A stretch of 41,138 nucleotides of DNA from an uncultured Saprospiraceae bacterium (lineage in GTDB: Bacteria > Bacteroidota > Bacteroidia > Chitinophagales > Saprospiraceae), in the NCBI GenBank assembly GCA_937941765.1, contig CALDGQ010000022.1, forward strand, positions 1 to 41,138, in the 5' to 3' direction. Position numbers and translations under genes: made by a program. Shown in pieces: positions 10,901 through 38,219 of this stretch. The notes beneath the pieces were generated by a model. It did no database searches and was not told the origin of the DNA. It worked only from the letters and a program-made list of their open reading frames with translations. Numbering within the stretch: position 1 is the stretch's first letter; each line of letters begins with the position of its first letter.

Positions 10901-11039
10901 GTGTACCAATGAAAAATAACTATACTAGTTTATAAGATATAATTAAGGTGTGATTTTATAGTAGTGTGGCGAAATTGAACTGTCAATTTCCCGCACTATT
11001 TTTTTTGCCTGAATCATTCAGAAGTGAATTCTGATTACC

Positions 11040-12056
11040 TCAACTTAGTGTACCCAAATAATCTTCCATTAAACTTTTTGATATTTTATAGGCATCCGTA
11101 ATCTGCAATTGGAATACCTGATCCAGCTGAAGATCGTTGTCTGTCAGCTCAATATTATTTTTTAATTTATAAAGTGTGTTTAAACTTTTCGAAAAATGAT
11201 GACCTCTCAAATATTTGAAATATAAATAATTACCACGCTCATTGATTAAGGCATGATATGGTGCATTTTCCATCTGATTCAAATCTATATCTTGAACCTC
11301 ATTAATTTTAACAATTGAATTTCGTTTGCCTTCTATTAATTGGTCACAATTTTCAGTAAGACTAAAAACAACTTCGGGTGTTGGTTTGATCTTGAAGTGG
11401 ATGCTGTTAGATTCCTTTTGATTAATTTTTAATACAGCAAAAGAAACTTCGTGAGAATCATTATCCAATGCCACGAAAATAGTTTTTCGATGAGCACACA
11501 ATTTGCGATCATAATGACCCGTAAAAATATACCGTGTGGGAATATCAAATAATCTAATTCTTCTTTTCAGTTGTGCATGAGCCAAAACAATATCGTACGG
11601 TTCCTGATTTGCTTCAATCAACGTTTTTAGTTTCTTCTTGAATTTGGAACAACTGTAAGGAATACCTAAAATGCTTAAACCACCAATCTCGACTTTTTTA
11701 TTATTAATATCTTGCGAATACTGTAAGCTTTCCGAAAATGCAACAACTTGATTGTAATACTTCGGATCGTCATGATTTCCACTTATAAACAGCGACGGAA
11801 TTTTCTTTCTTTCCAAAAAGGTGAGTAGTAAATTGAAGGCATGATGAAAACCATGACCACATGAACCATCACCAGTGATATCACCTGCAAATAAAACTAG
11901 GTCTGCTCGTTCATCTTCTACAATTTGGAGATACCGATAAATTCTTTGATAACGAGGAATGGAAATACGGGAAGGATCAAAAGAAAGCACTTCACTTTCG
12001 GTCATCGACCTTAGGTGAGATTCCCAATTTAAATCGCTCAATACAAGAATATTCAT
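11040..12056 (-). CDS. Calcineurin-like metallophosphoesterase with a ~120-aa C-terminal extension of unknown function
   Basis: Metallophosphoesterase motifs in order: ILVLSDLNWESH (D/H), LVLFAGDITGDG (GDxxD), FISGNHDD (GNH[DE]), VLAHAQL, FTGHYDRK (GH). Confidence 0.8.
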   Translation of the reverse strand: MNILVLSDLNWESHLRSMTESEVLSFDPSRISIPRYQRIYRYLQIVEDERADLVLFAGDITGDGSCGHGFHHAFNLLLTFLERKKIPSLFISGNHDDPKYYNQVVAFSESLQYSQDINNKKVEIGGLSILGIPYSCSKFKKKLKTLIEANQEPYDIVLAHAQLKRRIRLFDIPTRYIFTGHYDRKLCAHRKTIFVALDNDSHEVSFAVLKINQKESNSIHFKIKPTPEVVFSLTENCDQLIEGKRNSIVKINEVQDIDLNQMENAPYHALINERGNYLYFKYLRGHHFSKSLNTLYKLKNNIELTDNDLQLDQVFQLQITDAYKISKSLMEDYLGTLS

Positions 12057-12114
12057 TGTTAAATATTATCGTATTGAGCGATTAAATGGGTAAATGTTTT
12101 TGAGAAAATAATCA

Positions 12115-12216
12115 CTAAGATTTGTTCTTCTTTGCACGCTTTTCAGCTCTTTTTTCTTTAAGTGTTTTAGTTGCTTCTTTTTTTACATTTTTTTGTGAGT
12201 CTTTTCCTTTAGCCAT
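12115..12216 (-). CDS. Possible 33-aa highly basic micro-protein (MAKGKDSQKNVKKEATKTLKEKRAEKRAKKNKS)
   Basis: Hand translation of the minus strand: ATG at 12216 and TAG at 12115-12117, on the same strand as and between the AOS-fusion gene and the phosphoesterase gene. It is below the ORF-track length threshold. There is no homology evidence. Confidence 0.25.
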   Translation of the reverse strand: MAKGKDSQKNVKKEATKTLKEKRAEKRAKKNKS

Positions 12217-12329
12217 GTCTTAATATTTTAAAATTATAAATGTGTTTAGAATCAAATATACGTTTGATGATTGAAGTTTGCAAATCACACGATAAATAAA
12301 TGGTTATTGCCATTTTCACTGCCATTGCA

Positions 12330-14753: not shown

Positions 14754-15184
14754 ACCAGTTAGTTTTGGAACATTAATAATTAAGGTGTCTATCTTTCAAT
14801 AAACAAAAGAGTGGTGTCTTATAACCTCCGTTAAATCCGACTTAAATAAATAGATGGCTTTGTACAACCGTGTCAGATTGTACTTTAATGTGCAAGTGTT
14901 ATAAAACGGGGTCGGTTTTATATTGTTAGGTGAAAAGTAGTTCGCCTTCTTCTACTATTTTCTCAAATGTTTATTGTTCTATTCTAGAATAAATATAGAC
15001 AAAAATATTTTTGCTACTTCATTTTCGTCCAAAATATTTTTAGTAAATTTTATCCCTTGAAAGAATTATATCTTGAAGTTGTATCTATCTTGCTTATTGA
15101 ATTTGGAATAATTTTAAAATTCGACCAGCAGGATTGTAACTTCTTGATTAATTGATTCGTCCTTTTAAAAAATGATCAACCAAG

Positions 15185-17308
15185 ATGGAAATACCTAAAT
15201 TTAAGCTCAATCATATCATAATTGCTGTATTATTATTGTGCTCATATGTAGCTGATGCCCAGAGCTATATCCGAGTTACTGGTCGGGTAATCGATTCCCA
15301 AAATGAAAATGCAATTGGTTTTGCTCATGTTGGAATACCTGAATTGGGTATTGGGACAACAAGCGGAAATGATGGTGTCTTTTCGCTTAAAATTCCAGCA
15401 AAAGGAAAAAATAGCAAGATGACAATTTCTTTTTTAGGTTATCAAACTTATCAGATTAATGTCATGGATATTAATGACCATTTAAAAGTTAAGTTGCAAA
15501 GAAGCGCTACGGACCTAACTGAAATTGTAGTGACAGATAAAAACCAACCAATAGACATCGTTCGAAAAGCAATAAAAAATATTTCTAACAATTATCCTAC
15601 AAAATCAATGACCCATCTTGGTTTTTATAGAGAGAGTCGTACTGATGATTCTTTGAGACATAAATATCTGGCTGAAGGTGTTTTGAAAATTTATACCAAA
15701 AGTTATAAAAAGAAGAAAAATGGTGGACTTATAGGATTGGTTCAAGGACGGTTGATGAATTTTAAGAATCCATTAGATACGGTAAGTAATGCAGGATTGA
15801 CTTCTGGACACATGGCAGCGCATCGGTTTGATTTTGTGAAAAATAGAGAAGATTTTATTGATAAAAAGTTATTAGATCTCTATCAATATGAATTGGAGGA
15901 AATCACTACTTATCAAGACCGACCAGTCTATATTATTAGTTTTGGTCCTGATTTGAGTAAGGTAAAGCCGCAAGAAAAAAATGAAAATAAAACTAATTTT
16001 CTTCAGGCAATTGCGGCGGCAATTATGAAAAAGAAAGTACCCGAAACACATGCAAGGTTGAAAGGTAGAATGTTTATCGATGCAGACTCCTATGCATTTA
16101 TTCGAGCAGAATTTGAGGTGACAAAATCAGGTCTGAAAAAGAAGAACGACTATCCACTTTATGCAGGTACTTGGAGATACAATAAGTATGTTGTTAATTA
16201 TCGTAAGCATAACGAAAAGTGGTATTTCAGTGATGCCTTGCGCGAAGGTGGATATCGAGGTGAAGGTGTTTACACCAATGAAATAAAAATCACTCAAATA
16301 GATACGGGTGATCAAGGTCCTATTCCTTATGAAGAAAGAATTTCAAGAGGAGATGAGTTTGCGCAAGAAACTGGGAGTTACGAAGACTCTTTTTGGAAGT
16401 CCTTTAATACCACACCTTTAAAAGCTGCATTGGCAGAAAGTGTCCAACAATTCAAAAACATCAAAAAATCAAGTGAAGTTTTTAGTCCTAAGAGAATGGC
16501 TGCATTAAAAGCATTGCGAGATTCTGTCGATTTAGCAAATAGGACCGTTGTCTCTATTGATGAAGATGGAAATGAGCAGGAAATAATTCTAGAGCCTGGA
16601 TTGAGCAACGAGAAGGAAAATAATTACAAAGTTCGAACCATGATTGGAATCGGCACACATTTAATCTCGACATCTCCTAACAATTTGTTTGTAAAATACG
16701 ATGATGACAATGGTGCCGAAATTTTATCGCTTAATAATGGTTTTAAAGGACGTGATTTCGAAATTATTTCCAGTTTTGATATGGATTTCCCAATCAATAA
16801 AAATCTCTTTATAAGAGGTGGTTATACTTTCGAATTTGCTAATAGCATCTATAAAGAACTTTCTGTGGGACTTGGATATCAACTGAAACTTACCAAGGAA
16901 GGCCGTCCTTTTTATTTAAGAGGAGTTACTGGAGTTGATCGATTGCGTTATGCTCGTAAAATCGGTCAAGCAAAAAATGAGTATGGAAAATTTAAAGTGG
17001 GAAAAAAGAAATTCAAGGCAGAAAATATAAATCTATATTATGGGAGCCGTACTTTCAATTTAAAATTATCTGGAGAGTTGGCGATGGAATTTGATGGAAG
17101 TCCGCAGATGTATTTAAGAGGAACTTATTATTTACCATTCAGTCAAAGACAAGATCTTTGGTTTTTTGAGCGAAAGAAAATTGGTAGAAAGAAGCGTTAT
17201 GTGCCTGTGGATGATGAGCGCGTTTCAGTTTTAAGAAATGATATTTCTTTTAATGAATCGATTATTTCAGAAGGAAGCTTTTCGATTTTGTTTGGTATTT
17301 CTTTCTAA
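15185..17308 (+). CDS. Outer-membrane protein with an N-terminal carboxypeptidase-regulatory-like (CarboxypepD_reg) domain and a C-terminal beta-barrel-like region (possibly a DUF5686-type family)
   Basis: Signal peptide (…LLLCSYVADAQS), then the CarboxypepD_reg-like motif RVTGRVIDSQNENAIGFAHVGIPELGIGTTSGNDGVFSL. A C-terminal aromatic residue (…GISF) is typical of OM barrels. No TonB plug motif recognised. Confidence 0.65.
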   Translation: MEIPKFKLNHIIIAVLLLCSYVADAQSYIRVTGRVIDSQNENAIGFAHVGIPELGIGTTSGNDGVFSLKIPAKGKNSKMTISFLGYQTYQINVMDINDHLKVKLQRSATDLTEIVVTDKNQPIDIVRKAIKNISNNYPTKSMTHLGFYRESRTDDSLRHKYLAEGVLKIYTKSYKKKKNGGLIGLVQGRLMNFKNPLDTVSNAGLTSGHMAAHRFDFVKNREDFIDKKLLDLYQYELEEITTYQDRPVYIISFGPDLSKVKPQEKNENKTNFLQAIAAAIMKKKVPETHARLKGRMFIDADSYAFIRAEFEVTKSGLKKKNDYPLYAGTWRYNKYVVNYRKHNEKWYFSDALREGGYRGEGVYTNEIKITQIDTGDQGPIPYEERISRGDEFAQETGSYEDSFWKSFNTTPLKAALAESVQQFKNIKKSSEVFSPKRMAALKALRDSVDLANRTVVSIDEDGNEQEIILEPGLSNEKENNYKVRTMIGIGTHLISTSPNNLFVKYDDDNGAEILSLNNGFKGRDFEIISSFDMDFPINKNLFIRGGYTFEFANSIYKELSVGLGYQLKLTKEGRPFYLRGVTGVDRLRYARKIGQAKNEYGKFKVGKKKFKAENINLYYGSRTFNLKLSGELAMEFDGSPQMYLRGTYYLPFSQRQDLWFFERKKIGRKKRYVPVDDERVSVLRNDISFNESIISEGSFSILFGISF

Positions 17309-17316
17309 CAATATGA

Positions 17317-17973
17317 TTAGCAACTACACATACCAATCATAATGATAAATTCTTTGTAAAGTCTGGAAAAAAACTCGTCAAAAGAACCCCTGTTTTTTTT
17401 GAGGGCTTTAAATTCAGCTTTCAATTTGCTGATATCGGTTGGGTCCAAGTTTCCTTTGATGGCATAAAAATCCATTTCACAGAGTTCTCCATCATCGGCA
17501 CTAAAGATCTTTATCATATCATAAGATTCCAGCCAAGAATTGTCTTCTGTTTTTAATTCTTTGGTACAAATTCTTCCATACACATTTCCTCTAATTACTG
17601 AGGTGATTACAATTGGATTTTGAATAGTTATTTTGGTAAAGTCAATAGGGTCTGTAAAGTTGTAGAATCGATCAGGTTGATTTGTATCTGTATTGTTGAG
17701 GTGTTTCATTTCAATAACAGACAATGATCTAAAAGCAAATAATCTTGCTGTCTTCAAAGTCTCATTATTGATGATTTCTGAAAAGTCTTTTACATAATTC
17801 CAATCATAATCATATAAGCAAAGGTCATTGTTTTTTAATTTTCCTTTGCTCTCCAATTGTACAAAATATTCTTTACCATCCGCTTCAAATGTGATAATAT
17901 CAAAGGTAGGTATATCCGCAATTGCAGCAACGATACTGATCAACGAAAAGTAAATGATTAGTAATTGTTTCAC
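17317..17973 (-). CDS. Hypothetical secreted protein or lipoprotein (218 aa)
   Basis: N-terminal signal peptide MKQLLIIYFSLISIVAAIA. No other motif recognised. Confidence 0.5.
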   Translation of the reverse strand: MKQLLIIYFSLISIVAAIADIPTFDIITFEADGKEYFVQLESKGKLKNNDLCLYDYDWNYVKDFSEIINNETLKTARLFAFRSLSVIEMKHLNNTDTNQPDRFYNFTDPIDFTKITIQNPIVITSVIRGNVYGRICTKELKTEDNSWLESYDMIKIFSADDGELCEMDFYAIKGNLDPTDISKLKAEFKALKKNRGSFDEFFSRLYKEFIIMIGMCSC

Positions 17974-18003
17974 GAAAAGTCATATTAATTAATAACAAAA
18001 ATA

Positions 18004-18270
18004 CTACTTATTTTTTTGCTTGATCATGGCTAATATTTTCATAGTCAATAAAATCCCAGACAAAACAATCATCACTAAATTAGCAATAATGATCGGCAAT
18101 TCATTCAAAATGAATCCATAAATCACCCATAAAATTACACCAACAAATAGCATTGAAAAAGTAACTAAAGAAAGATCTTCAGTCGACTTGGTTTGCATTA
18201 CTTTATAAACTTGTGGAAGGAATGCCGCAGTAGTGAGAAAGGCGGCAAGGTACCCGATGATTTCAATCAT
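18004..18270 (-). CDS. SemiSWEET / PQ-loop family small sugar transporter (3 TM)
   Basis: An ~88-aa product from the internal Met (MIEIIGYLAAFLTTAAFLPQ…) carries the PQ motif in TM1, plus two further hydrophobic helices. The ORF-track start at 18336 adds 22 residues that look non-native. Confidence 0.65.
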   Translation of the reverse strand: MIEIIGYLAAFLTTAAFLPQVYKVMQTKSTEDLSLVTFSMLFVGVILWVIYGFILNELPIIIANLVMIVLSGILLTMKILAMIKQKNK

Positions 18271-18366
18271 AGATGGTGATGCTTTTTTTGATAAGCTGAT
18301 TTTGAAATTTTTTGAACCGCAGAAACTGCTGTTCAATTTCCGATCGTTTGTTATTTAGACAGGAGT

Positions 18367-19500
18367 TTAACTAACCGCTCCGAGCGGATCAGGTGCTGCC
18401 AAGATCTTAATATCCTCGTTTTTGATATTCTTTTTATACGCTTCTAACAATTCTTTTGTATATTCATAATTTTCATCTTCCTCCGTCATGTCCGCCATTT
18501 TTAAGTGCATCTCTTTTGCCTTTTTTAAGAAACGGAAATCGTTATACAGCATCAATGCCTCTTCAATTTCTTCATTTACTTGACCTTCTTTGTCCATAGC
18601 ACCATAGAATTTTTGAAGGATGGCAGCTGTTGCGAATTTAGGAGTAAAACTTTCTAATTCCGGTTTTTCAGCACCATCCACATTGATGATAATATAAGCA
18701 GCATCTCCATCGTATTCTACTCCTGTTTCTTTGTGGACCATTGCATAATCTTGCGCAGTTCCTTTTACTTTCCCAGGTTTATAATCATTGAATTTTACTT
18801 GATCTTTATTATTGCACATCAAGATCATATGAGCAAAAGAATTGGTCAGTCCACCTTTCCCAAAAGTGAATGATTCAGAATCTTCTAAAAATGGTTGACT
18901 TTCTACAACTGCACCAATTTTGTCAACAATTCCTGTGACCAAAGAACTTCCTAACAATAAACTTGCTTTTGAAGCAAAAACAGGTAAGTTTCCGGCAAAT
19001 GAAAATAGTTTTTTAATTCCATCTGCTGTTTTATTATTGAAAGTATCTGCAATCATTTGAAAAGTACAGATCGTTTCACTAGTGTCTAAGGCAGGTGCAT
19101 AGTAGACAACTTTGCAAGACTCTGTGATTGCTCCAAATTGCATGCGTTGACGTTCCTTGATCTTGCACATCAGGTTTATAGCTTTCAAAGAAGCACCAAA
19201 AGTAGAGTAGCATTTAACTGCAGAAACCACCAATAGCTCCGTTCTTTTTTTCCATTTGCTATTTTCAGGATCGCCTGTATACACACTTAAAATCTCGATA
19301 CTCAACGGTTTACCGATACCAATAGGCGTATAGGCATTGACTAAATCAGTCCCATCACTATCTGAATCACCTCTGGTGACAATACCTGCTGTCTTTTTTG
19401 TACTGTTAGCAACAATGGTTTTTAATTCTCCAGAATCTGATTTCTGTTTTAATTCATCTGGTGTCAAAGCGATATCGCCAAAGAAATGTAGGGTCGCCAT
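18367..19500 (-). CDS. Hypothetical cytoplasmic protein (377 aa) with an acidic C-terminal helical region
   Basis: Intact ORF with no signal peptide, TM segment or recognisable catalytic motif. It is the first gene of a three-gene unit on this strand, with the SemiSWEET and the secreted protein. Confidence 0.55.
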   Translation of the reverse strand: MATLHFFGDIALTPDELKQKSDSGELKTIVANSTKKTAGIVTRGDSDSDGTDLVNAYTPIGIGKPLSIEILSVYTGDPENSKWKKRTELLVVSAVKCYSTFGASLKAINLMCKIKERQRMQFGAITESCKVVYYAPALDTSETICTFQMIADTFNNKTADGIKKLFSFAGNLPVFASKASLLLGSSLVTGIVDKIGAVVESQPFLEDSESFTFGKGGLTNSFAHMILMCNNKDQVKFNDYKPGKVKGTAQDYAMVHKETGVEYDGDAAYIIINVDGAEKPELESFTPKFATAAILQKFYGAMDKEGQVNEEIEEALMLYNDFRFLKKAKEMHLKMADMTEEDENYEYTKELLEAYKKNIKNEDIKILAAPDPLGAVS

Positions 19501-19627
19501 AATTGGTTGTTTTTAGATTTAAATTTAGAAATAAAAGTGAAGGTGAGATTTATTCATATAATTGTATATAATAATACGAATAAATCTATTATTTCTTAGA
19601 AAAAACAAAGAAAAAAACAAAACGTCA

Positions 19628-20753: not shown

Positions 20754-22178
20754 CTAATCGGTAGTTTTAGTTGGTTTGATGGCTGGTGTACTTCCATTTT
20801 CATTGGTATCCTCTTTTGATTTATTAACCAATGCTTCTGGTAAACTCATTCCACTTTGCTCAAGGAAATCATTCAATTGTGGGACCATGCCGTAAAGACC
20901 TTTTACGAAATTTCCAACACCTTGTCCGTTTCCACTATCGTAAACAACCACCTTGTCGATTTCCATATCTCGAATTGCTGAAGTTTGAATTTGAGCTAAC
21001 TCCGTCAACTTATCAATCATCAAATATCCGATTGCACTTTGAGGATCTCCTCCCGCCGCTTGTACCAATTTAGCAAAACCTTCCGCCTGTTTAGTCAACA
21101 AAGCTTCTTGACCTTGTGCCTGCGCCATGTATTTTGCTAACAATGCATCTGCTTCTCCTTTTGCAGTTTCTCTCTGACGCTCTGCTTCCGCTTCTGCAGC
21201 GATGACTGCCTTTTGCTTTTCAATGGAAGCATCAACAACTTCATCTGCTTGTTTCTTTGCCAACTCCATTTTTGCACGTGCATCTTCCGCTTCTCTTTCT
21301 GCGACATAAGACTCTTCCAATGCTTTTGCGCTTGCTACTTTTTTCGCAGCTGTTGCTTTACGTTCTGCCTCTGCGATTTCGATATCTCTTAGTGCATCAG
21401 AGTTTGCGATTTTAATACTCGCTTCGTTTTTACCAGCAGCAGCCTTTGCCAATGCAGTTGCTTCACCGACTTCTGCTCGTGAGTTGGCATCAGAAACTTG
21501 CGTTCTTTGATCTTGCTGCGCTTCCGCCTGACCAATTGCACCCGTTCTTTCCTCATTTGCTACTTTAATTCTTGCATCGTTGATTGCTTTTGCCGCCGCT
21601 TCCTTACCTAATGCTTGGATATATCCAGACTCATCTTGGATGTCGGTAACGTTTACGTTGATCAGTGCAAGACCGATTTTGTTCAATTCTTTACCAACAT
21701 TTAGGTAAACGGAATCTACAAATTTATCTCTATCTGTATTCAATTCCTCAATGTCCATATTTGCAATTACCAATCGCATTTGACCCATAATAATATCGTG
21801 TGCCAATGAGCGAATCGATGGTTGATCTAAACCTAACAATCTTTCTGCAGCAGCCAACATTAAGTCTGGCTGATTACTGACACCTACTGTAAATTGTGCA
21901 GGTACAGAAACACGAATGTTTTGTTTAGAAAGTGCATCTTGCAAATTGACATCAATACTTATTGGCGTCAAATCTAGATACCGATAATCTTGAATCACAG
22001 GCCATACAAAAGTGGCTCCACCAGCATAGCATTTTGCAGATTCTCCTCCACCAGTAGCACCATAAACGACAAGGATTTTGTCGGAAGGACATCTACGATA
22101 TCTGCTAATAATGAAAACTGTGATTAAGACAATTAGGATAACAATGAATCCTACTAACATAATAATTTCACTACCCAT
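20754..22178 (-). CDS. Flotillin-like SPFH/band-7 domain protein (YqiK/FloT-like)
   Basis: N-terminal TM helix, an SPFH domain, then a long Ala/Glu/Lys-rich coiled-coil region (EA repeats) typical of flotillins. It follows an NfeD-like gene. Confidence 0.85.
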   Translation of the reverse strand: MGSEIIMLVGFIVILIVLITVFIISRYRRCPSDKILVVYGATGGGESAKCYAGGATFVWPVIQDYRYLDLTPISIDVNLQDALSKQNIRVSVPAQFTVGVSNQPDLMLAAAERLLGLDQPSIRSLAHDIIMGQMRLVIANMDIEELNTDRDKFVDSVYLNVGKELNKIGLALINVNVTDIQDESGYIQALGKEAAAKAINDARIKVANEERTGAIGQAEAQQDQRTQVSDANSRAEVGEATALAKAAAGKNEASIKIANSDALRDIEIAEAERKATAAKKVASAKALEESYVAEREAEDARAKMELAKKQADEVVDASIEKQKAVIAAEAEAERQRETAKGEADALLAKYMAQAQGQEALLTKQAEGFAKLVQAAGGDPQSAIGYLMIDKLTELAQIQTSAIRDMEIDKVVVYDSGNGQGVGNFVKGLYGMVPQLNDFLEQSGMSLPEALVNKSKEDTNENGSTPAIKPTKTTD

Positions 22179-24332: not shown

Positions 24333-24434
24333 ATTATTACAGAATTTGTGTCCTAGTTTAACACCAATAAAAGGAAATTGTTGCTCCAGTAGAATCGAAG
24401 TGAATTCATTGTCAAGGCTCGGACAAAAAAATGC

Positions 24435-24653
24435 TTAATTGATATTAGTATCTTTTGTTTTGAGGCTGTCCTGATTATTAGGATCCGTGATGGACTTTTC
24501 CAAATGATTAGATTTCGCTAATTGTTCTGAAAATATTGATTTTGAAATGTTATTGTTGGAATAAATTTCCCATTGGAAAAAATCAGTAAGCAATGCGATG
24601 TTTAGACAAGCCAACACCATAATTGGTACGAGATATTTGAAATTGATTTTCAT
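24435..24653 (-). CDS. Small hypothetical secreted protein (72 aa)
   Basis: ORF with an N-terminal hydrophobic segment (LVPIMVLACLNIALL). No other support. Confidence 0.3.
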   Translation of the reverse strand: MKINFKYLVPIMVLACLNIALLTDFFQWEIYSNNNISKSIFSEQLAKSNHLEKSITDPNNQDSLKTKDTNIN

Positions 24654-25315
24654 ATGATGGAAGGTTTATGAGGTTTCTCTATTGCAAATCTAATACAATA
24701 CAAGGTACTATGCAATACATAGTAGTGATTTGTTTGTGTTTTAACATTTGCAGAAATACACCATTATGTTGTAACTCACTGATAAATAATAACTAACGCT
24801 TAAATAAGATAGAAAGTGTAAATAAGTATTATTTTTTCGATTCTGAACTTAATTGCCTTTTAAGCCTAACAAATCTTCAAAATTTGAAACATGAACCAAT
24901 CAAAACGTAAATCATTTAGAGCGCGTTATTAAGGCAATTTAATCAATCATATATTCAGCTATGTCGTATAATAACTATTTGAACGAGGGATTTCTAAGCG
25001 ATGATCGTCATAAGACTTTATTTTTGGAGTTCATTTAGAAATAAAAGAATGGACAGATTGGTTTCTATTGATAGAGATTATAAAAAATGAGACGAATTTA
25101 CTTTTTTGTGTTTCAGTAAATTAATTGACAAAGCATCAAATATAAACAGTACAATTTACTATGAATTAGCTTTAAAGTTTGAAGTCCAACATTACCTATT
25201 AACTTTGCGGAGGTTAAAGTGAAAAAAAAGAATCGATAGATCTAAATACGACTGACTATTTGTAGATTTCACCAACTAAATGACAAGGGACTTTTTGAAA
25301 ATAAAATAAAACCAA

Positions 25316-31305: not shown

Positions 31306-31449
31306 TTCTATTCAATCCAAAATCAAAAACTAGGTAGATTTCTTTGTAAAACAGCATTCTTTTAGAATAAATGAGGTTTTTTAAGCAGAAAATCATTAAA
31401 TTTAGTATTCCTCAATTTGCGCAATCCCAAGGTCCGGAGCATATGAAAC

Positions 31450-32361
31450 ATGAACAACATTACAACGCAAAAGGCTGTACAGGCGTGTCTATCTTATTTT
31501 GACATATTTCAGCATCCGCTGAAAAAAGAAGAAATCGCCAACTTTTTAAGCATCTCTTGTGAGGCTAGGGAACTGGATACTGCAATTTCAGATTTAAAAG
31601 ATGCTAATTTAATTTTCAATATAAATGATTATTATTCGTTACATAACAATATAAATCTTGTTATAGATCGAATAGCTTTTGAAAAAAGAGCGGATGAAAA
31701 GATGAAAGAGGCATTGCATTATGGACAGTTGATTCAAAAATTTCCTTTTACAAAAGCAGTTTGCATTTCAGGAAGTTTGTCCAAGCATATCATGAAAAAA
31801 GATTCTGATATTGATTTCTTTATCATGGCAAAAGCGAATCGAATATGGATAGCAAAATTGTTGTTGAAAATGTACAAATTTCTGTTTCTTAATAATTCTA
31901 AGGACGTCTTTTGTATCAATTATTTTATTGCTGAAAATAATCTTTCGATTGCAGAACAGAATACTTTTACGGCAACAGAGTTGGTTACATTGATTCCGAT
32001 TGGATGTCAGGTTGAATATGAAAAGATATTGAAGCAAAATAAATGGTACAAGGAATTTCTTCCTAATTATACCAATGTTTCCAAAGAATCTTTTCCAATA
32101 ACAGCTAAAGAAAAACCATATGTTTCCAAATTATTGGAAATGCTATTTTCAGGAAAATGGGGTAATTTTATAGATACTAGAATTATGAAATTGCATGCAA
32201 TGAGAAATAGAAAAAAATACGCGAAGTTAAAAAACAATAAAGACTTTGAATTAATGCTTAGAGCTACCAAGAATCAGATAAAAGTACATCCACCTAATTC
32301 TCAAAACGTAACTTTAGCTAAATACAAAAGTCTTATCAACAATCTCGATAACAGTTACTAG
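31450..32361 (+). CDS. Pol-beta-superfamily nucleotidyltransferase-fold protein (303 aa); first gene of the B12-rSAM operon
   Basis: The motif ISGSLSKHIMKKDSDIDFFIM fits the minimal nucleotidyltransferase signature hG[GS]-x(9-13)-Dh[DE]h. Its stop is 2 bp before the GTG start of the next gene. Confidence 0.55.
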   Translation: MNNITTQKAVQACLSYFDIFQHPLKKEEIANFLSISCEARELDTAISDLKDANLIFNINDYYSLHNNINLVIDRIAFEKRADEKMKEALHYGQLIQKFPFTKAVCISGSLSKHIMKKDSDIDFFIMAKANRIWIAKLLLKMYKFLFLNNSKDVFCINYFIAENNLSIAEQNTFTATELVTLIPIGCQVEYEKILKQNKWYKEFLPNYTNVSKESFPITAKEKPYVSKLLEMLFSGKWGNFIDTRIMKLHAMRNRKKYAKLKNNKDFELMLRATKNQIKVHPPNSQNVTLAKYKSLINNLDNSY

Positions 32362-32363
32362 AA

Positions 32364-33818
32364 GTGAGCTTAAAAATCCTTTGTACCAATTCCTACTTTT
32401 ATCAATACGATGAAAAGCAATGGAAAATGGCCCAGCCATATCCACCGCTTGGTACTTTATATGCTGTGTCAGTTTTACGCCAAAATCAATTCCATACTTC
32501 TTTTTTTGATAACAATTTAGTTTCAAACCATAATGAGATCTATCAGGTCATCGAAAATGAAAAACCTGAAATACTAGTCATTTATGATGATGGGTTTAAT
32601 TATTTGACAAAGATGTGTTTGACAAAAATGCAAAACGCAACTTTTGAAATTCTGAAATTTGCTAAAGAAAGAGGCATTATTACGATTTGTAATAGTTCAG
32701 ATTCAACAGATCATTACCAACAATATCATGAAAACGGAGCGGATTATATTATTCATGGAGAAGGAGAAGATGCACTCGTAGAATTGTGCAGTACCTTATC
32801 TAATAACGAATTTGTAAACAATTTGTTGGGAATAAGTTTTGTTGAAAATGAGAAAATTACTTTAAACGCAAAAAGATCGGTCAAAAAAGACTTAGATAGT
32901 TTGCCAATGCCAGCTTGGGATGTAGTTGATATTGATAAATATAAAAATATCTGGGAGTCTAATCATGGTTATTTCTCTTTAAACCTAGCGACGACGAGAG
33001 GCTGTCCATATAAATGTAATTGGTGCGCAAAACCAATTTATGGAAACCGCTACAACTCTAGATCTCCAGAAAAAGTAATGGATGAAATCGAATATTTAGT
33101 CCAAACTTTTGAGGTACCTTACTTTTGGATGTGTGACGATATTTTCGGGTTGAAACCTGGTTGGGTGCAGAAATTTAACGAAGAAAAAAGAAAAAGAAAC
33201 CTCAAATTTAAATACAAAATTCAATCTCGTGTAGACTTAATGCTGCAAGATGATCATTTGGATGCGCTGGCGGAAAGTGGTGCAGATATGATTTGGGTTG
33301 GAGCAGAAAGTGGTTCTCAGAAAATATTAGATGCCATGGATAAAGGCACCAAAGTAGAACAAATATATGAAGCAACAGAAAAATTAAAATCACGTAATGT
33401 TAATGTTGCATTTTTCTTGCAATTCGGATATTTAGGGGAAACTTGGAAAGATATTCAGCAAACAATCAACATGGTTTTAGATTTAGTGCCAGATGATATC
33501 GGAATTTCTGTATCTTATCCTTTACCTGGAACTAAATTTTATGACAAGGTAAAAGCAGACCTTATTTTGAAGACCAATTGGACAGATTCTGATGATTTGG
33601 ATCTAATGTTTAAAAATAATTTCCCGCCTATCTTTTACAAAACGTTGCATCGTTATGTTCACAACAGATATCGAATTAAAAAAGGAATTTTAAGTTTTAA
33701 AACTCCTTTTTCGTCCATGAAATCGAAAGGATTTGATTTTTTAAGAATGATTTATCATTTGCCACTAGCAATGCTTAATCGCCTATTATTGTTGAAGCAT
33801 ACTTTTCGTCAACCATGA
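32364..33818 (+). CDS. B12-binding domain radical SAM enzyme (class B rSAM, likely methyltransferase)
   Basis: N-terminal Rossmann-like cobalamin-binding region (…ILVIYDDGFN…), rSAM cluster motif TRGCPYKCNWC (CxxxCxxC), and a C-terminal helical region. GTG start. Paralogous in its N-terminus to ORF 34588. Confidence 0.85.
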   Translation: MSLKILCTNSYFYQYDEKQWKMAQPYPPLGTLYAVSVLRQNQFHTSFFDNNLVSNHNEIYQVIENEKPEILVIYDDGFNYLTKMCLTKMQNATFEILKFAKERGIITICNSSDSTDHYQQYHENGADYIIHGEGEDALVELCSTLSNNEFVNNLLGISFVENEKITLNAKRSVKKDLDSLPMPAWDVVDIDKYKNIWESNHGYFSLNLATTRGCPYKCNWCAKPIYGNRYNSRSPEKVMDEIEYLVQTFEVPYFWMCDDIFGLKPGWVQKFNEEKRKRNLKFKYKIQSRVDLMLQDDHLDALAESGADMIWVGAESGSQKILDAMDKGTKVEQIYEATEKLKSRNVNVAFFLQFGYLGETWKDIQQTINMVLDLVPDDIGISVSYPLPGTKFYDKVKADLILKTNWTDSDDLDLMFKNNFPPIFYKTLHRYVHNRYRIKKGILSFKTPFSSMKSKGFDFLRMIYHLPLAMLNRLLLLKHTFRQP

Positions 33819-34588
33819 AAAAAGCAACCTTTGACATAGAAGCAAGTAACTACGATCAGCATTTTACAGATACTAAAATCGGTCGCATCCAAAGAAATCG
33901 GGTATGGAAATACATGCGCAAACTATTGGCTGGTAAAAAGCAACTCAAAATATTGGAATTGAATTGTGGTACCGGCGAAGATGCTGCTTTTTTTGCTGAA
34001 AAAGGACATATGGTTTTAGCAACGGATCTATCTCCCAAAATGCTAGAGGTCGCAAATCGAAAAATTTGGAATAAGGGATTGAAATATAATGTCCAAACAC
34101 AAACGCTTGACCTCAGAAATCCCAAATTGAAAAGAGGTGAAATGTATGATGTGATTTTTTCAAATTTTGGAGGATTAAATTGTATTTCCAAAACAGAATT
34201 GGATCAATTGTCAGATGTGCTTTCTAAACATCTACTTCCTAAAGGGAGTTGTGTTTTTGTTGTTATGCCGAAAAATACTATTGTAGAAAAATGGTTTAGA
34301 AAGTATAAGAACCAATCAGATATTTTTCACAAAAGAAACGCGCAAATTCCGCTTAAAGTCAATGTTAGTGGAGAATTGATTAGCACTTATTTTCATTCTG
34401 ATGATGACCTAAAATCATCATTTTATAAGTTTCAACACATTGTAACAAAGCCAATTGGATTTATTCCTTCTTATTTTGAACATTCTAATCGATATTTTTT
34501 GCTAAATATTTTTGATAAAATAGCAACGATCCTAAAATTTAATGCGAACACAGCTGACCATTATTTGATTCATTTTCAAAAGAAATAA
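33815..34588 (+). CDS. Class I SAM-dependent methyltransferase
   Basis: Motif I ILELNCGTGEDAAFF (GxGxG-like) and motif II/post-I acidic residue (LATDLS). ATGA overlap with the upstream rSAM gene and TAATG overlap with the downstream gene. Confidence 0.8.
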   Translation: MKKATFDIEASNYDQHFTDTKIGRIQRNRVWKYMRKLLAGKKQLKILELNCGTGEDAAFFAEKGHMVLATDLSPKMLEVANRKIWNKGLKYNVQTQTLDLRNPKLKRGEMYDVIFSNFGGLNCISKTELDQLSDVLSKHLLPKGSCVFVVMPKNTIVEKWFRKYKNQSDIFHKRNAQIPLKVNVSGELISTYFHSDDDLKSSFYKFQHIVTKPIGFIPSYFEHSNRYFLLNIFDKIATILKFNANTADHYLIHFQKK

Positions 34589-35976
34589 TGAAAATACTTT
34601 TGACACATGGCTATTTCATCAAGGAAGATGAGAAAGAGCAGAAAATAATGAAGCCTTATCCGCCATTGGGTATTTTGTACATCTCAGCATGGCTGGATAA
34701 CAATGGCATTACAAATGATATATTTGATACGACTTTTTCTAGAAAACAATTGTTGTATAATTATCTCGACAAGGAAAAACCAAATGTAGTTGCTTTTTAT
34801 ACGAATTTAATGACCAAGGTGAATATCATTGAGGCTGTCAAATATATTCGTTCAAATCCAACTTTAAAAGATACAATTGTTGTTTTAGGTGGACCAGATG
34901 TTCGGCACAATAAGAAAGATTATTTGGATACCGGTGCAAACATTGTTGTATTTGGTGAAGGAGAACAAACAATGCTTGAAATAGCAAATGCTGTAAAAGC
35001 TGGAATTATAAATGAATTTGGACATATTGATGGCATCGCTTATTATAGCAATGGCGAGGTAATTGAAACTAAAGAACGTAGCAGAATTCGTCCTGTTGAT
35101 AGCATCCCGTTTCCCAATCGACACAAAATTAATATTCAACAATACTTAGACGTTTGGAAAAAATATCATGGACAAAGCGCGATGACCGTAAGTACTCAGC
35201 GTGGTTGCCCATATACCTGTAAGTGGTGCAGTACCGCCGTTTATGGCCAAAGCTATCGTCGACGAAGTCCTAAAATTGTCGTTGAAGAATTAAAACACAT
35301 CAAAGAAACTTACAATCCTGATACCATTTGGTTTGTGGATGATGTTTTTTCTGTTAGTCACAAATGGATTGAAACCTTTAAAGATGAGTTATTGAAACAA
35401 GATGTACACATTCCTTTTGAGTGTATCACACGAGCGGATCGAATGGATGAGCAAGTGATCAACTGGTTAAAAGAAGCTGGTTGCTTTAGAGTTTGGATTG
35501 GTGCGGAAAGTGGCTCGCAGAAAGTGATTGACTTGATGGATAGGAGAGTAAGTGTAGAACAGGTCCGGGATATGATTCAGTTAACCAGGAAAAAAGGAAT
35601 GCAAGCAGGTACTTTTATTATGCTCGGTTATCCAGGAGAAACGGAAGCCGATATTATCGAAACAGTCAACCATTTGAAAGCATGTGATCCGGATTATTTT
35701 ACAATTACAGTTGCTTATCCAATCAAAGGAACTTCCCTTTATAACGAAATTGAAGCCATTCAAACATCCAATTTGGAATGGGACAAAAGTACGGATAGAG
35801 ATCGTGACTTTGAACGAAAATATTCCCGAAAATATTATGAATACGCCGTAAAATGGGTCGACAATGAAGTCAGATGGTATCAAAGATGGAAAGAAAATAA
35901 TTGGCAAAATAAAGCTGCTTTTAAGTATAAATTGAAGGCTTTGGTGAGTCGGTCAATGATGCGATTTCATATTTGA
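34588..35976 (+). CDS. B12-binding domain radical SAM enzyme (second paralogue)
   Basis: The N-terminus MKILLTHGYFIKEDEKEQKIMKPYPPLGILY parallels ORF 32364 (…KILCTNSYFYQYDEKQWKMAQPYPPLGTLY). Also a B12-binding region and the rSAM motif QRGCPYTCKWC. Confidence 0.85.
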   Translation: MKILLTHGYFIKEDEKEQKIMKPYPPLGILYISAWLDNNGITNDIFDTTFSRKQLLYNYLDKEKPNVVAFYTNLMTKVNIIEAVKYIRSNPTLKDTIVVLGGPDVRHNKKDYLDTGANIVVFGEGEQTMLEIANAVKAGIINEFGHIDGIAYYSNGEVIETKERSRIRPVDSIPFPNRHKINIQQYLDVWKKYHGQSAMTVSTQRGCPYTCKWCSTAVYGQSYRRRSPKIVVEELKHIKETYNPDTIWFVDDVFSVSHKWIETFKDELLKQDVHIPFECITRADRMDEQVINWLKEAGCFRVWIGAESGSQKVIDLMDRRVSVEQVRDMIQLTRKKGMQAGTFIMLGYPGETEADIIETVNHLKACDPDYFTITVAYPIKGTSLYNEIEAIQTSNLEWDKSTDRDRDFERKYSRKYYEYAVKWVDNEVRWYQRWKENNWQNKAAFKYKLKALVSRSMMRFHI

Positions 35977-36037
35977 TTAGATGTTTTTGTTAATCATTTC
36001 TTGGTTTACCTTTATTTCTAGGAAGTTTTTTTTTTGT

Positions 36038-36199
36038 TTTTTACCACTAAGCAGGTTTTACCACTAAGAAGGTAAGGCACTAAGAGGGACTAAGATCAGG
36101 TATAGTTTCTGAGATTTATTTAAGTAATTTTTGGGAAGTCTTTTATGTTTTTTTACCACTAAGAAGGTAAGGCACTAAGAGGGATTCAGATCAGGTATA
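36038..36199. repeat. Direct repeats with a ~96-bp period upstream of the multiheme cytochrome gene
   Basis: Two 48-49 bp copies (36056-36104 and 36151-36199; 44/48 identical, with 34 consecutive identical bases ttttaccactaagaaggtaaggcactaagaggga) plus a partial third copy (36038-36060); the motif cactaag recurs within each copy. Confidence 0.6.
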
Positions 36200-36284
36200 C
36201 TTCCTGCGTTGTTTTGCGCTTTCTGCGTGAGGCATTTTAAGAAACAAGAGCATCGGAATATCAGAAAAAGTCGTAATTTCCCAC

Positions 36285-38219
36285 ATGTCTTATTCCAGAA
36301 AAATCGTCTATTTATTATTGTTAGGAATTGCAATGACACTTGTATTTTGTCAGCGAGATGCTGTTGTCGAAACAAATGCAAATACGTATCAAAATTTACA
36401 AGATTCAGTCGCTTATATGGGTATGCAAACCTGTAGAAGTTGTCATAACAATATCCATCAAACATTTATAGAAACAGGTATGGGGCAATCTTTTGATCAT
36501 GCTACTCAACAAAAAACAGCCGCAACTTATGGAGCTCATGCAGTGGTCTATGATAAGAAATCAAATTTTTATTACCAACCTTTTTTTAGAGATTCGATTT
36601 TATATGTGATGGAATATAGATTGGAAGGAAAAGACACGATTCACAAAAGGATTGAAAAGATTAGCTACATCGTTGGGTCAGGTCACCACACCAATTCCCA
36701 TATTATTGACGAGAACGGATATATTTTTCAGGCACCGATTACTTTTTACACACAAGAAAAGAAGTGGGACATGGCGCCAGGTTTTGAAAAAGATAATTTA
36801 CGTTTCGAACGTTTTCTAACAACGGAATGTATCACTTGTCATAATCATTTCCCAACTTTTGTAGAAGGCTCCCTGAATAAATTTGAGTCCATGCCTTCTG
36901 GTATTGAATGTGAGCGATGTCATGGTCCGGGTGAGATTCATGTACATGAAAAATTGGCAGGAAACAACATCGACACCTCACAGTATATCGACTACTCCAT
37001 CGTTAATCCAACAGATCTTTCACGAGAATTGCAAATGGACTTATGCCAACGTTGTCACTTGCAAGGACTAGCAGTATTGGAAGAAGGGAAAACCTTTTTT
37101 GACTTCAAACCAGGAATGGAATTGTCTAGTATAATGAATGTATTTTTACCTAGATATACGGATTCTCATGAGAAATTTATCATGGCTTCTCAAGCAGATC
37201 GATTGCGATTGAGTAAATGCTATACCCAATCCGAAATGACCTGTTTGACCTGCCATAATCCCCATCATAGTGTTAGGAAGTCAGAAAAAAATGATTTTAA
37301 CAAGCCATGTATGTCTTGTCATACCACCAAAAAAGTAAATGAATGCAGTGTACCTTTGGCTGAACGTGCTCAAAATAATAATAATTGTGTCAGTTGTCAT
37401 ATGCCACCTTCAGGAAGTACGGATATCCCACATATCAATATTACAGATCATTACATAAGCAAAGTGACTTCCGTGAATACTTCAAAAAATACATCTGATA
37501 AAATTAATACAAAAGAGAAAAATTCAATTGCTCGGTTTTTAGGACTGAAAATTTTGACAAAAGAAAAAGCTACTTCATTAGACATGGCTCGTGGATATAT
37601 TGCTATGTATGACAAAAGTGTAGAAGCAGATGCTATTTTGGATTCCGCCCATTATTATTTAATTCAAGCGAATAGTATCAATGATTTGACATTTAAAACG
37701 TGGATTCATTATTATTTCGCAAAAAAAGATTTTAATTCGATCATACAAAAATCAAAAGGGGCTTCCGCTGCATCAATACAGGATGGATGGACTGCTTATC
37801 GAATAGGAGAAGCTTATCTCAAAAATGGAGATTCCAACAAGGCGCTTCCTTATCATAAAAAAGCAACTTCATTGATGCCTTTTAATTTAGATTTTCAAGA
37901 AAAATTGGGAATCACACAAGTTTATTTACAACAGTTGAAAGCAGCACAAGAGACCTTTAATTTTGTGTTGAAAGAAAACTCAAAACGACCGATTGCTCTG
38001 TGTAATTTGGGTTTTACGAAAGCATTAGAAGGTGATTTTAAAATTGCAGAAAAATATTACAATCAAGCCATTCAATTAGACCCAGATTATGAACAAGCTT
38101 TGGTTAATAAAGCAGCATTATTAAGGCACTTGAAAAGAGAAAACGAGAGTAATCAATTGTTTAAGCGCGTATTGAAAATCAATCCTAATAACGAACAAGC
38201 AAGGCAATTTTTAAAATAA
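36285..38219 (+). CDS. Heptaheme c-type cytochrome fused to C-terminal TPR repeats; probable lipoprotein or periplasmic protein
   Basis: Seven CxxCH motifs read in the translation (CRSCH, CITCH, CERCH, CQRCH, CLTCH, CMSCH, CVSCH). N-terminal hydrophobic leader with an LVFC lipobox-like sequence. The C-terminal ~250 aa contains TPR-like repeats (…AYRIGEAYLKNGD…, …NLGFTKALEGDFKIAEKYYNQAIQLDPDY…). Confidence 0.85.
   Translation: MSYSRKIVYLLLLGIAMTLVFCQRDAVVETNANTYQNLQDSVAYMGMQTCRSCHNNIHQTFIETGMGQSFDHATQQKTAATYGAHAVVYDKKSNFYYQPFFRDSILYVMEYRLEGKDTIHKRIEKISYIVGSGHHTNSHIIDENGYIFQAPITFYTQEKKWDMAPGFEKDNLRFERFLTTECITCHNHFPTFVEGSLNKFESMPSGIECERCHGPGEIHVHEKLAGNNIDTSQYIDYSIVNPTDLSRELQMDLCQRCHLQGLAVLEEGKTFFDFKPGMELSSIMNVFLPRYTDSHEKFIMASQADRLRLSKCYTQSEMTCLTCHNPHHSVRKSEKNDFNKPCMSCHTTKKVNECSVPLAERAQNNNNCVSCHMPPSGSTDIPHINITDHYISKVTSVNTSKNTSDKINTKEKNSIARFLGLKILTKEKATSLDMARGYIAMYDKSVEADAILDSAHYYLIQANSINDLTFKTWIHYYFAKKDFNSIIQKSKGASAASIQDGWTAYRIGEAYLKNGDSNKALPYHKKATSLMPFNLDFQEKLGITQVYLQQLKAAQETFNFVLKENSKRPIALCNLGFTKALEGDFKIAEKYYNQAIQLDPDYEQALVNKAALLRHLKRENESNQLFKRVLKINPNNEQARQFLK

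Follow-up and report, generated by a model that had tools for sequence, protein, structure and literature searches.

The 41,138-nucleotide stretch analyzed here (contig CALDGQ010000022.1 of an uncultured Saprospiraceae bacterium, called the window throughout) carries, at 31450-35976 on the plus strand, an operon of four genes, g1 to g4. They encode a protein with a predicted winged helix and nucleotidyltransferase fold (g1), two radical S-adenosylmethionine (SAM) enzymes of the B12 type (g2 and its paralogue g4), and a class I SAM-dependent methyltransferase (g3). We propose, with moderate confidence, that the four genes are an isolated copy of a widespread cassette whose products modify, on the cytoplasmic side, a sugar unit destined for a surface glycan (lipopolysaccharide, capsule, or exopolysaccharide). 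A role for the cassette in a surface-glycan sugar, rather than in a lipid or pigment, is suggested because it lies nearly always within surface-polysaccharide clusters.

The genes are closely packed. g1 (31450-32361, 303 amino acids) is separated from g2 (32364-33818, 484 amino acids, GTG start) by a 2-bp gap (TAG-aa-GTG), g2 overlaps g3 (33815-34588, 257 amino acids) by 4 bp (ATGA), and g3 overlaps g4 (34588-35976, 462 amino acids) by 1 bp (TAATG). Read directly from the sequence, these genes and junctions are as an earlier note on this DNA had described them. The family assignments of that note are also borne out, radical SAM for g2 and g4 and methyltransferase for g3 by Pfam and, less firmly, the nucleotidyltransferase fold of g1 by motif and model. 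So is the paralogy of g2 and g4, whose alignment spans 442 residues at 31% identity (E = 8e-87); near the N terminus both have KIL.T..YF...DEK...PYPPLG. Tight junctions are a trait of the whole family: across 36 to 59 related loci, each of the three has a median spacing of -4 bp. The GC content of the operon (0.31 to 0.38) is like that of the remaining window.

The cassette is both widespread and coherent. In a scan that covered a single genome for each species, relatives of g1 turned up in at least 570 genomes, and the best 80 of these belong to two phyla, Bacteroidota and Ignavibacteriota. Carriers among these 80 are, within Bacteroidota, Saprospiraceae (the closest, with 63% g1 identity), Aquimarina, Winogradskyella, Tenacibaculum, Kordia, Roseivirga, Cyclobacteriaceae, Chitinophagaceae, and Mucilaginibacter, and, within Ignavibacteriota, Ignavibacterium and Melioribacter. 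A HMMER search with g1 against 1.84 billion representatives returned 313 clusters (50% identity) at E<=1e-30, a number that rises to 2206 when the limit is E<=1e-10. A census of 83 non-redundant loci was then compiled with a greedy open reading frame (ORF) caller and blastp. A g2 orthologue directly follows g1 in 59 of these loci and is convergent with it in 14 (the Chitinophagaceae/Mucilaginibacter type), which places it beside g1 in 73 of the 83; the rest comprise seven loci that are truncated or have no g2 call, two without a g1 call, and one that is rearranged. The two missing g1 calls are misses of the ORF caller, as g1 is found there by tblastn. The four-gene order of the window is repeated in 37 of the 83 loci, and all four proteins retain their catalytic motifs. 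When contexts were picked solely through g2 homologues, a g1 homologue lay immediately upstream in three of three. The earlier note had allowed that the nucleotidyltransferase-fold gene might not be conserved with the radical SAM genes in related genomes; it is kept beside g2 in most of the loci approached through g1 and in all three approached through g2. g1 and g2 are thus an almost obligate pair, and the four genes are a conserved, tightly overlapping unit. At one locus (L040), there is a minimal g1-methyltransferase pair.

The genomic company of this unit provides the link to surface glycans. Neighboring proteins of the related loci were clustered, and representatives were annotated by Pfam. 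Recurrent glycan partners are GT4 and GT2 glycosyltransferases (four clusters each), GT87, Wzy_C and Wzy_C-TPR proteins, a fused ABC exporter, and NKWYS. Recurrent tailoring partners are a third clade of B12-type radical SAM enzymes (cl4), a radical SAM-SPASM enzyme, an amidohydrolase, a HemK-like NPPY methyltransferase, and further methyltransferases of class I (MT-cl3 and MT-cl15). To these, the genes called in individual loci add Bac_transf, Acyl_transf_3, a carbamoyltransferase with SxtJ and DUF5989, sulfotransferases, GT9, and RgpF. Fifty-one of the loci are 15 kb or longer; recurrent glycan genes are present in 43 of them, two or more such genes in 34, and additional methyltransferase or radical SAM genes in 42. 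The accessory set recurs in both phyla, and the wider flanks are lineage specific. The closest species-level relative among the matches listed (L005, 63% g1 identity) has the arrangement g1-g2-g4-methyltransferase-GT4-GT4-GT61, with a Wzy_C-TPR gene on the opposite strand. The cassette is therefore normally embedded in glycan assembly loci of the Wzy or ABC type, and the window, where the four genes stand alone, represents a minority type.

Within these clusters, each B12-type radical SAM gene tends to adjoin its own class I methyltransferase gene, as g2 with g3, g4 with MT-cl3, and cl4 with the HemK-like NPPY enzyme or MT-cl15. Larger clusters hold up to three such pairs together with the radical SAM-SPASM enzyme (e.g., L035 at 10903-19531, L017, L038, and L088).

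Domain fusions of g1 point in the same direction. Fusions were found with Bac_transf (P0262, on one metagenomic contig), with GT4 (P0288, in two independent sequences), with a class I methyltransferase (P0299, on one metagenomic contig), and with a NAD-dependent epimerase/dehydratase, a short-chain dehydrogenase/reductase (SDR) of the nucleoside diphosphate (NDP)-sugar epimerase type (P0364, a RefSeq protein from the complete genome of Aureispira anguillae). The Aureispira locus is a textbook Wzx/Wzy locus, with a flippase, Wzy_C, two GT4 genes, and a Wzy_C-Bac_transf gene, and it has no radical SAM gene. Upstream of the GT4 fusion lie Bac_transf, GT4, Wzy_C-TPR, RgpF, and Wzy_C genes, and a g2-type radical SAM gene lies directly downstream, while the Bac_transf fusion is flanked by two GT4 genes and Wzy_C on one side and by an epimerase gene on the other. 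Judged from these domain combinations, the fusions appear to tie g1 to early cytoplasmic steps of glycan assembly, namely the initiating transferase and sugar-nucleotide modification. Coupling of g1 with radical SAM genes is a feature of the g1 subfamily found in the window. From the fusions and the glycan loci together, it follows that the likely scaffold is a sugar or glycan with genes outside this 41-kb contig, and not a lipid, carotenoid, or tRNA.

g2 and g4 are radical SAM enzymes by Pfam, with PF04055 scores of 78.6 and 85.6 bits, respectively, against a gathering score of 29.5. The B12-binding domain (PF02310, threshold 32.1) is matched above threshold by g4 (44.6 bits) and below it by g2 (21.8 bits), and a precomputed PF02310 match is present in many g2 orthologues. 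The CxxxCxxC motif is found in all 76 g2 orthologues (CPYKCNWC in g2 itself) and all 39 g4 orthologues. An AlphaFold2 model of g2 (pLDDT 83) matches MgmA, OxsB, TsrM, CysS, TokK, and AprD4 about equally, at TM scores of 0.6 to 0.7 and 15 to 20% identity, and superposes on the first five over 420 to 550 columns. By sequence, g2 has its closest solved relatives in MgmA (9CCB), OxsB, TokK, and CysS, and g4 has them in AprD4, its best PDB match, and MgmA; the 9CCB entry is MgmA (PMC11796369, PMC12931638). g2 is the most conserved protein of the cassette, with 59 to 60% identity between Saprospiraceae and Ignavibacteriaceae, compared with 35 to 40% for g1.

In NCBIfam, g2 and g4 match some 35 models of B12-type radical SAM families, none at cut-off; all scores fall two- to sevenfold short, at broadly similar distances. 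Models matched below cut-off include BchE, HpnJ, HpnR, PhpK, Sden_1168, MgmA, BzaD, ApyD, KedN5, the ladderane lipid radical SAM enzyme, and TsrM, and the best scores are 163 against 481 (BchE) for g2 and 156 against 600 (PhpK) and 155 against 481 (BchE) for g4. The two enzymes are thus members of the B12-type radical SAM architecture that lie outside every characterized subfamily. The JGI label [quoted passage not shown] (BchE), carried by the g2 orthologues P0171, P0191, P0207, P0209, P0213, P0218, and P0227, is probably an over-annotation in view of the shortfall of g2 against the BchE model. For the label "B12-rSAM" given to both enzymes in the earlier note, the radical SAM part and the domain layout stand by homology, but the same layout occurs in enzymes that bind no cobalamin, AprD4 and ArsL (PMC12931638). 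g3 scores 52.9 bits with Methyltransf_25 (threshold 27) and 36 bits with Methyltransf_11, and the glycine-rich motif I is kept in 49 of 50 orthologues; no NCBIfam equivalog is reached by g3, the best being CpaM at 52.9 bits against a cut-off of 180.

These observations bear on the view of the earlier note that the operon forms a self-contained unit for the tailoring of a small molecule or lipid. On such a reading, the target would be a free small molecule, a membrane lipid, or a cofactor, with C-methylation of a lipid or isoprenoid as an example, and the glycan genes elsewhere would be coincidental or would only add sugars to that molecule to give a glycolipid; we consider this rather unlikely. 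The window's copy and 8 of the 51 long loci do stand alone without recurrent glycan genes, the best sub-threshold NCBIfam matches include BchE, HpnJ, HpnR, and the ladderane lipid enzyme, and GT87 and other polytopic membrane proteins would also be compatible with glycolipid assembly. However, these NCBIfam matches are about equally distant from g2 and g4, no lipid, polyketide, terpene, or carotenoid scaffold genes recur in the 83 loci, and the recurrent Wzy_C, Bac_transf, GT4, and ABC exporter genes are typical of polymer assembly. With polysaccharide-assembly genes in 43 of the 51 long loci and g1 fused to glycan enzymes, among them a phosphoglycosyl transferase and the NDP-sugar-type SDR, the description of a self-contained module without a scaffold does not hold for the family.

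g1 consists of an acidic N-terminal winged helix (residues ~1 to 65), a long helix, a nucleotidyltransferase core (~97 to 185), and a strongly basic helical C-terminal region, and its AlphaFold2 model, built from 46 homologues, has a pLDDT of 91.9 and a pTM of 0.89. Pfam matches to Polbeta (21 bits) and NTP_transf_2 (19 bits) are both below threshold, although the weak NTP_transf_2 match is repeated in 44 of the 46 family members; the NCBIfam scan of g1 gave no match. Residues G108, S111, D120, and D122 (G-S...D-x-D) and E177 are invariant in the 46 homologues, and the hG[GS]...D-x-[DE] signature of Pol-beta-type nucleotidyltransferases is present in g1 and in 71 of the 80 g1 orthologues called from the loci. 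The strand at 154-161, where the third carboxylate is expected, has invariant C155, N157, and Y158 and no acidic residue; judged from the alignment, conserved E169 and invariant E177 in the next helix are candidates for this role. In a Foldseek search, the model resembles MNT antitoxins and the kanamycin nucleotidyltransferase ANT(4'), as well as LinB, AadA, and DrrA, with all matches weak (E>1e-3). Structure searches with g1 and g2 found no close solved relative that would reveal a substrate. On the basis of the model, g1 is best described as a putative new, divergent branch of MNT/KNTase-like nucleotidyltransferases with an added winged helix.

Alternatively, g1 could be a regulatory or scaffolding subunit, either a winged-helix DNA-binding regulator with a nucleotidyltransferase-like sensor or a chaperone of the radical SAM enzymes. 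The invariant N157 in place of the canonical third carboxylate and the weakness of all fold matches would fit such a role, which we nevertheless regard as improbable, because G108, S111, D120, D122, and E177 are invariant and because fusion to enzymes, including a membrane-bound phosphoglycosyl transferase, would be unusual for a transcription factor. DNA binding in particular is disfavored because the winged helix is acidic (median net charge -2, positive in only 6 of 46 members), as is the equivalent of its recognition helix, unlike in DNA-binding winged helices, and g1 was therefore rejected as a DNA-binding regulator. The C-terminal region has a median charge of +9, which suits a phosphate-rich ligand. 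Two further candidate roles were set aside: a LicD/fukutin-like phosphotransferase, as there is no LicD match in the 46 members at E<=0.1, and a B12-handling enzyme, which is unlikely as relatives of g1 occur in loci free of radical SAM genes and fused to glycan enzymes.

A peptide or protein substrate was also considered. The operon could belong to a proteusin-type system for peptides made by the ribosome and modified after translation (RiPPs) or modify a surface protein, with the radical SAM enzymes C-methylating and the methyltransferases N- or O-methylating residues of a peptide recognized by the winged helix of g1. In keeping with this, the solved protein nearest to g2 is MgmA, a protein glutamine C-methyltransferase, the radical SAM-SPASM enzyme and the HemK-like NPPY methyltransferase are present where the cluster is larger, Wzy_C proteins include O-oligosaccharyltransferases, and the gene set resembles proteusin clusters. 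Yet MgmA is no closer to g2 than OxsB, TsrM, CysS, or TokK, the fusion partners of g1 are sugar enzymes, and the winged helix of the g1 model has the canonical helix-strand-helix-helix-strand-strand order, unlike the topology of RiPP recognition elements. When 1235 intergenic ORFs of 20 to 110 amino acids from the 83 loci were clustered, families were confined to close relatives and the window had a member in none of them, in agreement with the absence of a precursor peptide stated in the earlier note. The 43-amino-acid ORF at the start of the operon (31371-31502), which that note had already thought unsupported, has no counterpart in the 83 related loci. A RiPP cluster was rejected on these grounds, and we hold modification of a peptide or protein to be an unlikely function.

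It is very improbable, in our estimation, that the unit serves nucleic-acid modification or anti-phage defense, with the nucleotidyltransferase and radical SAM enzymes acting on nucleotides, tRNA, or DNA. PADLOC returned weak matches to PDC-M51A for g2 and g4 (40 to 46 bits) and to mad2 for g3 (56 bits, generic methyltransferase domain only), OxsB and MiaB are among the structural neighbors of g2, and a deaminase-like amidohydrolase and the NPPY methyltransferase are present in some larger clusters. Against this, g1 has no PADLOC match, the matches of the others are to generic domains, the unit is syntenic and vertically conserved with GC content like its surroundings, no mobile or defense genes flank it in the window, and its neighbors in other genomes are glycan genes. 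A defense system was thus rejected, as PADLOC gave nothing meaningful.

When these results are combined, a possible route through the cassette can be outlined. g1 would place a nucleotide handle on a sugar or sugar-phosphate, or would hold a nucleotide-linked one, in the manner of the small-molecule nucleotidyltransferases that it resembles. g2 and g4 could then carry out radical chemistry at C-H positions of that substrate, most likely C-methylation at unactivated carbons and less likely dehydration or rearrangement. C-methylation is the most probable outcome because each functionally characterized group of B12-type radical SAM enzymes includes C-methyltransferases (PMC12931638). g3 may add a conventional O- or N-methyl group, and the product would be installed in the glycan by (phospho)glycosyl transferases and export machinery encoded elsewhere in the genome. 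No N-terminal signal peptide was seen by eye in the four translations, and radical SAM enzymes need a reducing cytoplasm. The more specific proposal is offered only tentatively: a Pol-beta-fold winged-helix nucleotidyltransferase would form or hold a sugar with a nucleotide handle, and alkylation or rearrangement of its unactivated carbons by both radical SAM enzymes would yield a new branched or C-alkylated sugar on the surface glycans of many Bacteroidota and Ignavibacteriota.

Several points weigh against the surface-glycan proposal. The window itself has none of the recurrent accessory clusters and no glycan gene in its 41 kb, and the glycan link here is guilt by association in other genomes. 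Eight of the 51 long loci likewise lack recurrent glycan genes, glycosyltransferase genes are common in Bacteroidota, the count of 43 in 51 is one without a matched random-locus control, and genes were called for the census by a greedy ORF caller that is crude. For three of the four fusions, the support is one or two metagenomic contigs. Relatives of g1 also occur without any radical SAM gene (L040 and L089), so its role does not depend on radical SAM chemistry. The third catalytic carboxylate of g1 appears to be off the canonical strand position, which is taken by the invariant N157; sugar-1-phosphate nucleotidyltransferases are normally of another fold than Pol-beta, and we know of no Pol-beta-fold enzyme that makes a nucleotide sugar. 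Finally, cobalamin use and methyl transfer by g2 and g4 are inferred by homology, and AprD4-like proteins do not bind B12.

If the surface-glycan proposal is correct, it would give the Pol-beta nucleotidyltransferase fold a new role and would predict unusual, probably C-methylated, sugars in the surface glycans of these bacteria, as well as a dependence of glycan structure on cobalamin, which many Bacteroidota must scavenge. The more specific, tentative scheme would make the cassette the first case in which B12-type radical SAM enzymes help to build polysaccharides of the bacterial cell surface, and would tie the structure of these glycans to cobalamin supply. The B12-type radical SAM enzymes comprise more than 100 sequence groups, the largest of which are still unexplored, and the characterized members listed belong to antibiotic, cofactor, pigment, lipid, and protein-modification pathways, with no cell-surface glycan among them (PMC12931638). 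The cassette defines a large and strongly conserved group whose genomic company points to the surface polysaccharides of bacteria that are abundant in marine, soil, and wastewater settings, and it offers a compact four-gene target in culturable genera such as Tenacibaculum, Winogradskyella, Aquimarina, and Mucilaginibacter. Pfam and NCBIfam scans of the four proteins and ten accessory proteins returned generic domains only, with no equivalog cut-off reached, and a keyword literature search found no description of the four-gene cassette. The impression in the earlier note that the architecture is not a described pathway is upheld, and neither profile searches nor gene neighborhoods place the operon in a known pathway, as no curated family is reached. 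The four-gene cassette, the g1 family, and the glycan association are new to curated families and to the literature found, while the component superfamilies are known.

A number of observations from the related loci concern genes that follow or interrupt the cassette. A predicted lipoprotein of 371 amino acids with one CXXCH motif (KCIWCHE) and no Pfam or NCBIfam match, "unk371" (L015, 14498-15613), belongs to a cluster (cluster 11) found directly after g4 in 12 loci, mostly of Flavobacteriaceae, often beside a polytopic membrane protein of 508 amino acids without a family match. At a Tenacibaculum locus (L002, 14693-18170) and a metagenomic one (L090, 13538-16765), the cassette is followed by a protein of 314 to 316 amino acids without a family match, a carbamoyltransferase, a small protein, and DUF5989; the small protein downstream of the carbamoyltransferase is SxtJ-like in L002 and has no Pfam match on record in L090. 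At the Saprospiraceae locus L087 (14783-17440), CHAT-domain and TPR genes are inserted between the g1-g2 and methyltransferase-g4 halves. The window also encodes a TPR-CHAT protein of 987 amino acids (314-3277, minus strand; CHAT E=3.5e-59), and the presence of CHAT/TPR genes in both places may be a coincidence or may mark a recurrent neighbor in this lineage.

Apart from the operon, the window encodes the CHAT-TPR protein, proteins with aminotransferase domains, a two-component system, an SPFH protein, and cargo proteins of the type IX secretion system (T9SS). The VOC gene upstream of the operon and the multiheme cytochrome gene downstream, which the earlier note had called unrelated, are not kept beside the unit in other genomes; a relative with 66% identity keeps the upstream SGL/T9SS gene and has no gene call for the VOC gene. 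The cytochrome gene (36285-38219, plus strand, 644 amino acids) encodes multiheme cytochrome c motifs (Cytochrome_C7, paired CXXCH) and C-terminal TPR repeats, with weak decaheme-family matches. It was considered as a relative of the CXXCH lipoprotein "unk371", to which it shows no similarity. In the intergenic region downstream of g4 (36013-36215) there is a 65-nt direct repeat made up of ACTAAGA-like sub-units, with copies at 36056-36120 and 36151-36215 that are 88% identical and 95 nt apart, and a weaker flanking repeat (36013-36056 and 36125-36168); the 30-nt core of the 65-nt repeat has its only two sites in the window here (0 expected by chance) and no Rfam match. The window as a whole has no Rfam match, including to cobalamin riboswitches, and no tRNA gene. 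At 12330-14753 (minus strand), a protein of 807 amino acids carries a class I/II aminotransferase domain at residues 48-378 and ~430 further residues without a Pfam match, and another ORF, at 5047-6120 (minus strand), shows a weak aminotransferase-like match. A GC peak at 21001-22000 (0.42 compared with ~0.33), where the GC and AT skews are both strongly negative, falls inside the SPFH/Band 7 gene (20754-22178, minus strand), and about 1 kb at 24333-25315 is free of tRNA genes and Rfam matches and, on both strands, of ORFs of at least 110 amino acids.

Comparison with known systems places the cassette near several characterized pathways and within none of them. In the bza operon for anaerobic dimethylbenzimidazole synthesis, BzaC, BzaD, and BzaE combine a class I methyltransferase with two paralogous B12-type radical SAM enzymes and a ribotide-linked substrate. 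The cassette differs in reaching just 88 and 87 of the 450 bits that the BzaD model sets as its cut-off, in having no bzaA/B or cobT, and in its glycan rather than cobamide context, and a bza-type cobamide module was rejected on the BzaD scores; BzaD and BzaE are listed among the B12-type radical SAM enzymes (PMC12931638). MgmA (QCMT, 9CCB), the methyl-coenzyme M reductase glutamine C-methyltransferase, is the best solved match of g2 (sequence E=2e-21, fold E=1.8e-19, TM score 0.60 to 0.68). It is, however, only 20% identical, its TIGR04014 model scores 105.7 against a cut-off of 360, and it is an archaeal protein modifier, whereas no methyl-coenzyme M reductase is found here.

Closer in logic are Fom1/Fom3 of fosfomycin and OxsA/OxsB of oxetanocin biosynthesis. 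The substrates of Fom3 and OxsB are nucleotide linked, and presentation of such a substrate to a B12-type radical SAM enzyme is the logic that we would infer for g1 and g2; OxsB is the second-best match of g2 both in structure and in sequence. These systems differ in serving phosphonate and nucleoside antibiotic pathways, no phosphoenolpyruvate mutase or HD-domain partner recurs near the cassette, the scores of the cassette enzymes with the PhpK-family and Sden_1168 models of NCBIfam are far below cut-off, and the cytidylyltransferase fold of Fom1 is different from the Pol-beta type.

Precedents for the predicted chemistry and for the predicted handle come from antibiotic metabolism. Methylation of sugar carbons is exemplified by GenK, GenD1, and MoeK5. 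GenK and GenD1 (gentamicin), Fms7, MoeK5 (moenomycin), and the apramycin diol dehydratase AprD4 have an N-terminal Rossmann B12-like domain followed by a CxxxCxxC barrel, as do g2 and g4, and they act on carbohydrate carbons (PMC12931638 in part). These class B enzymes differ from those of the cassette in belonging to antibiotic pathways of Actinomycetota, in having neither a nucleotidyltransferase-fold partner nor Wzy/ABC glycan machinery, and in sharing only 15 to 20% identity with the cassette enzymes, which match no curated subfamily. An aminoglycoside-like pathway was rejected, as no aminotransferase or cyclitol-synthase family is found among the annotated recurrent neighbor clusters (unannotated clusters left out). 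For g1, the closest parallel is with the MNT/KNTase-type nucleotidyltransferases (MntA antitoxins, ANT(4'), LinB, and AadA), which have the G-S...D-x-D signature and, judged from the model, the core fold in common with it. ANT, LinB, and AadA also resemble g1 in the order of a nucleotidyltransferase core and a helical C-terminal domain, and these enzymes nucleotidylate sugar hydroxyls of small molecules.

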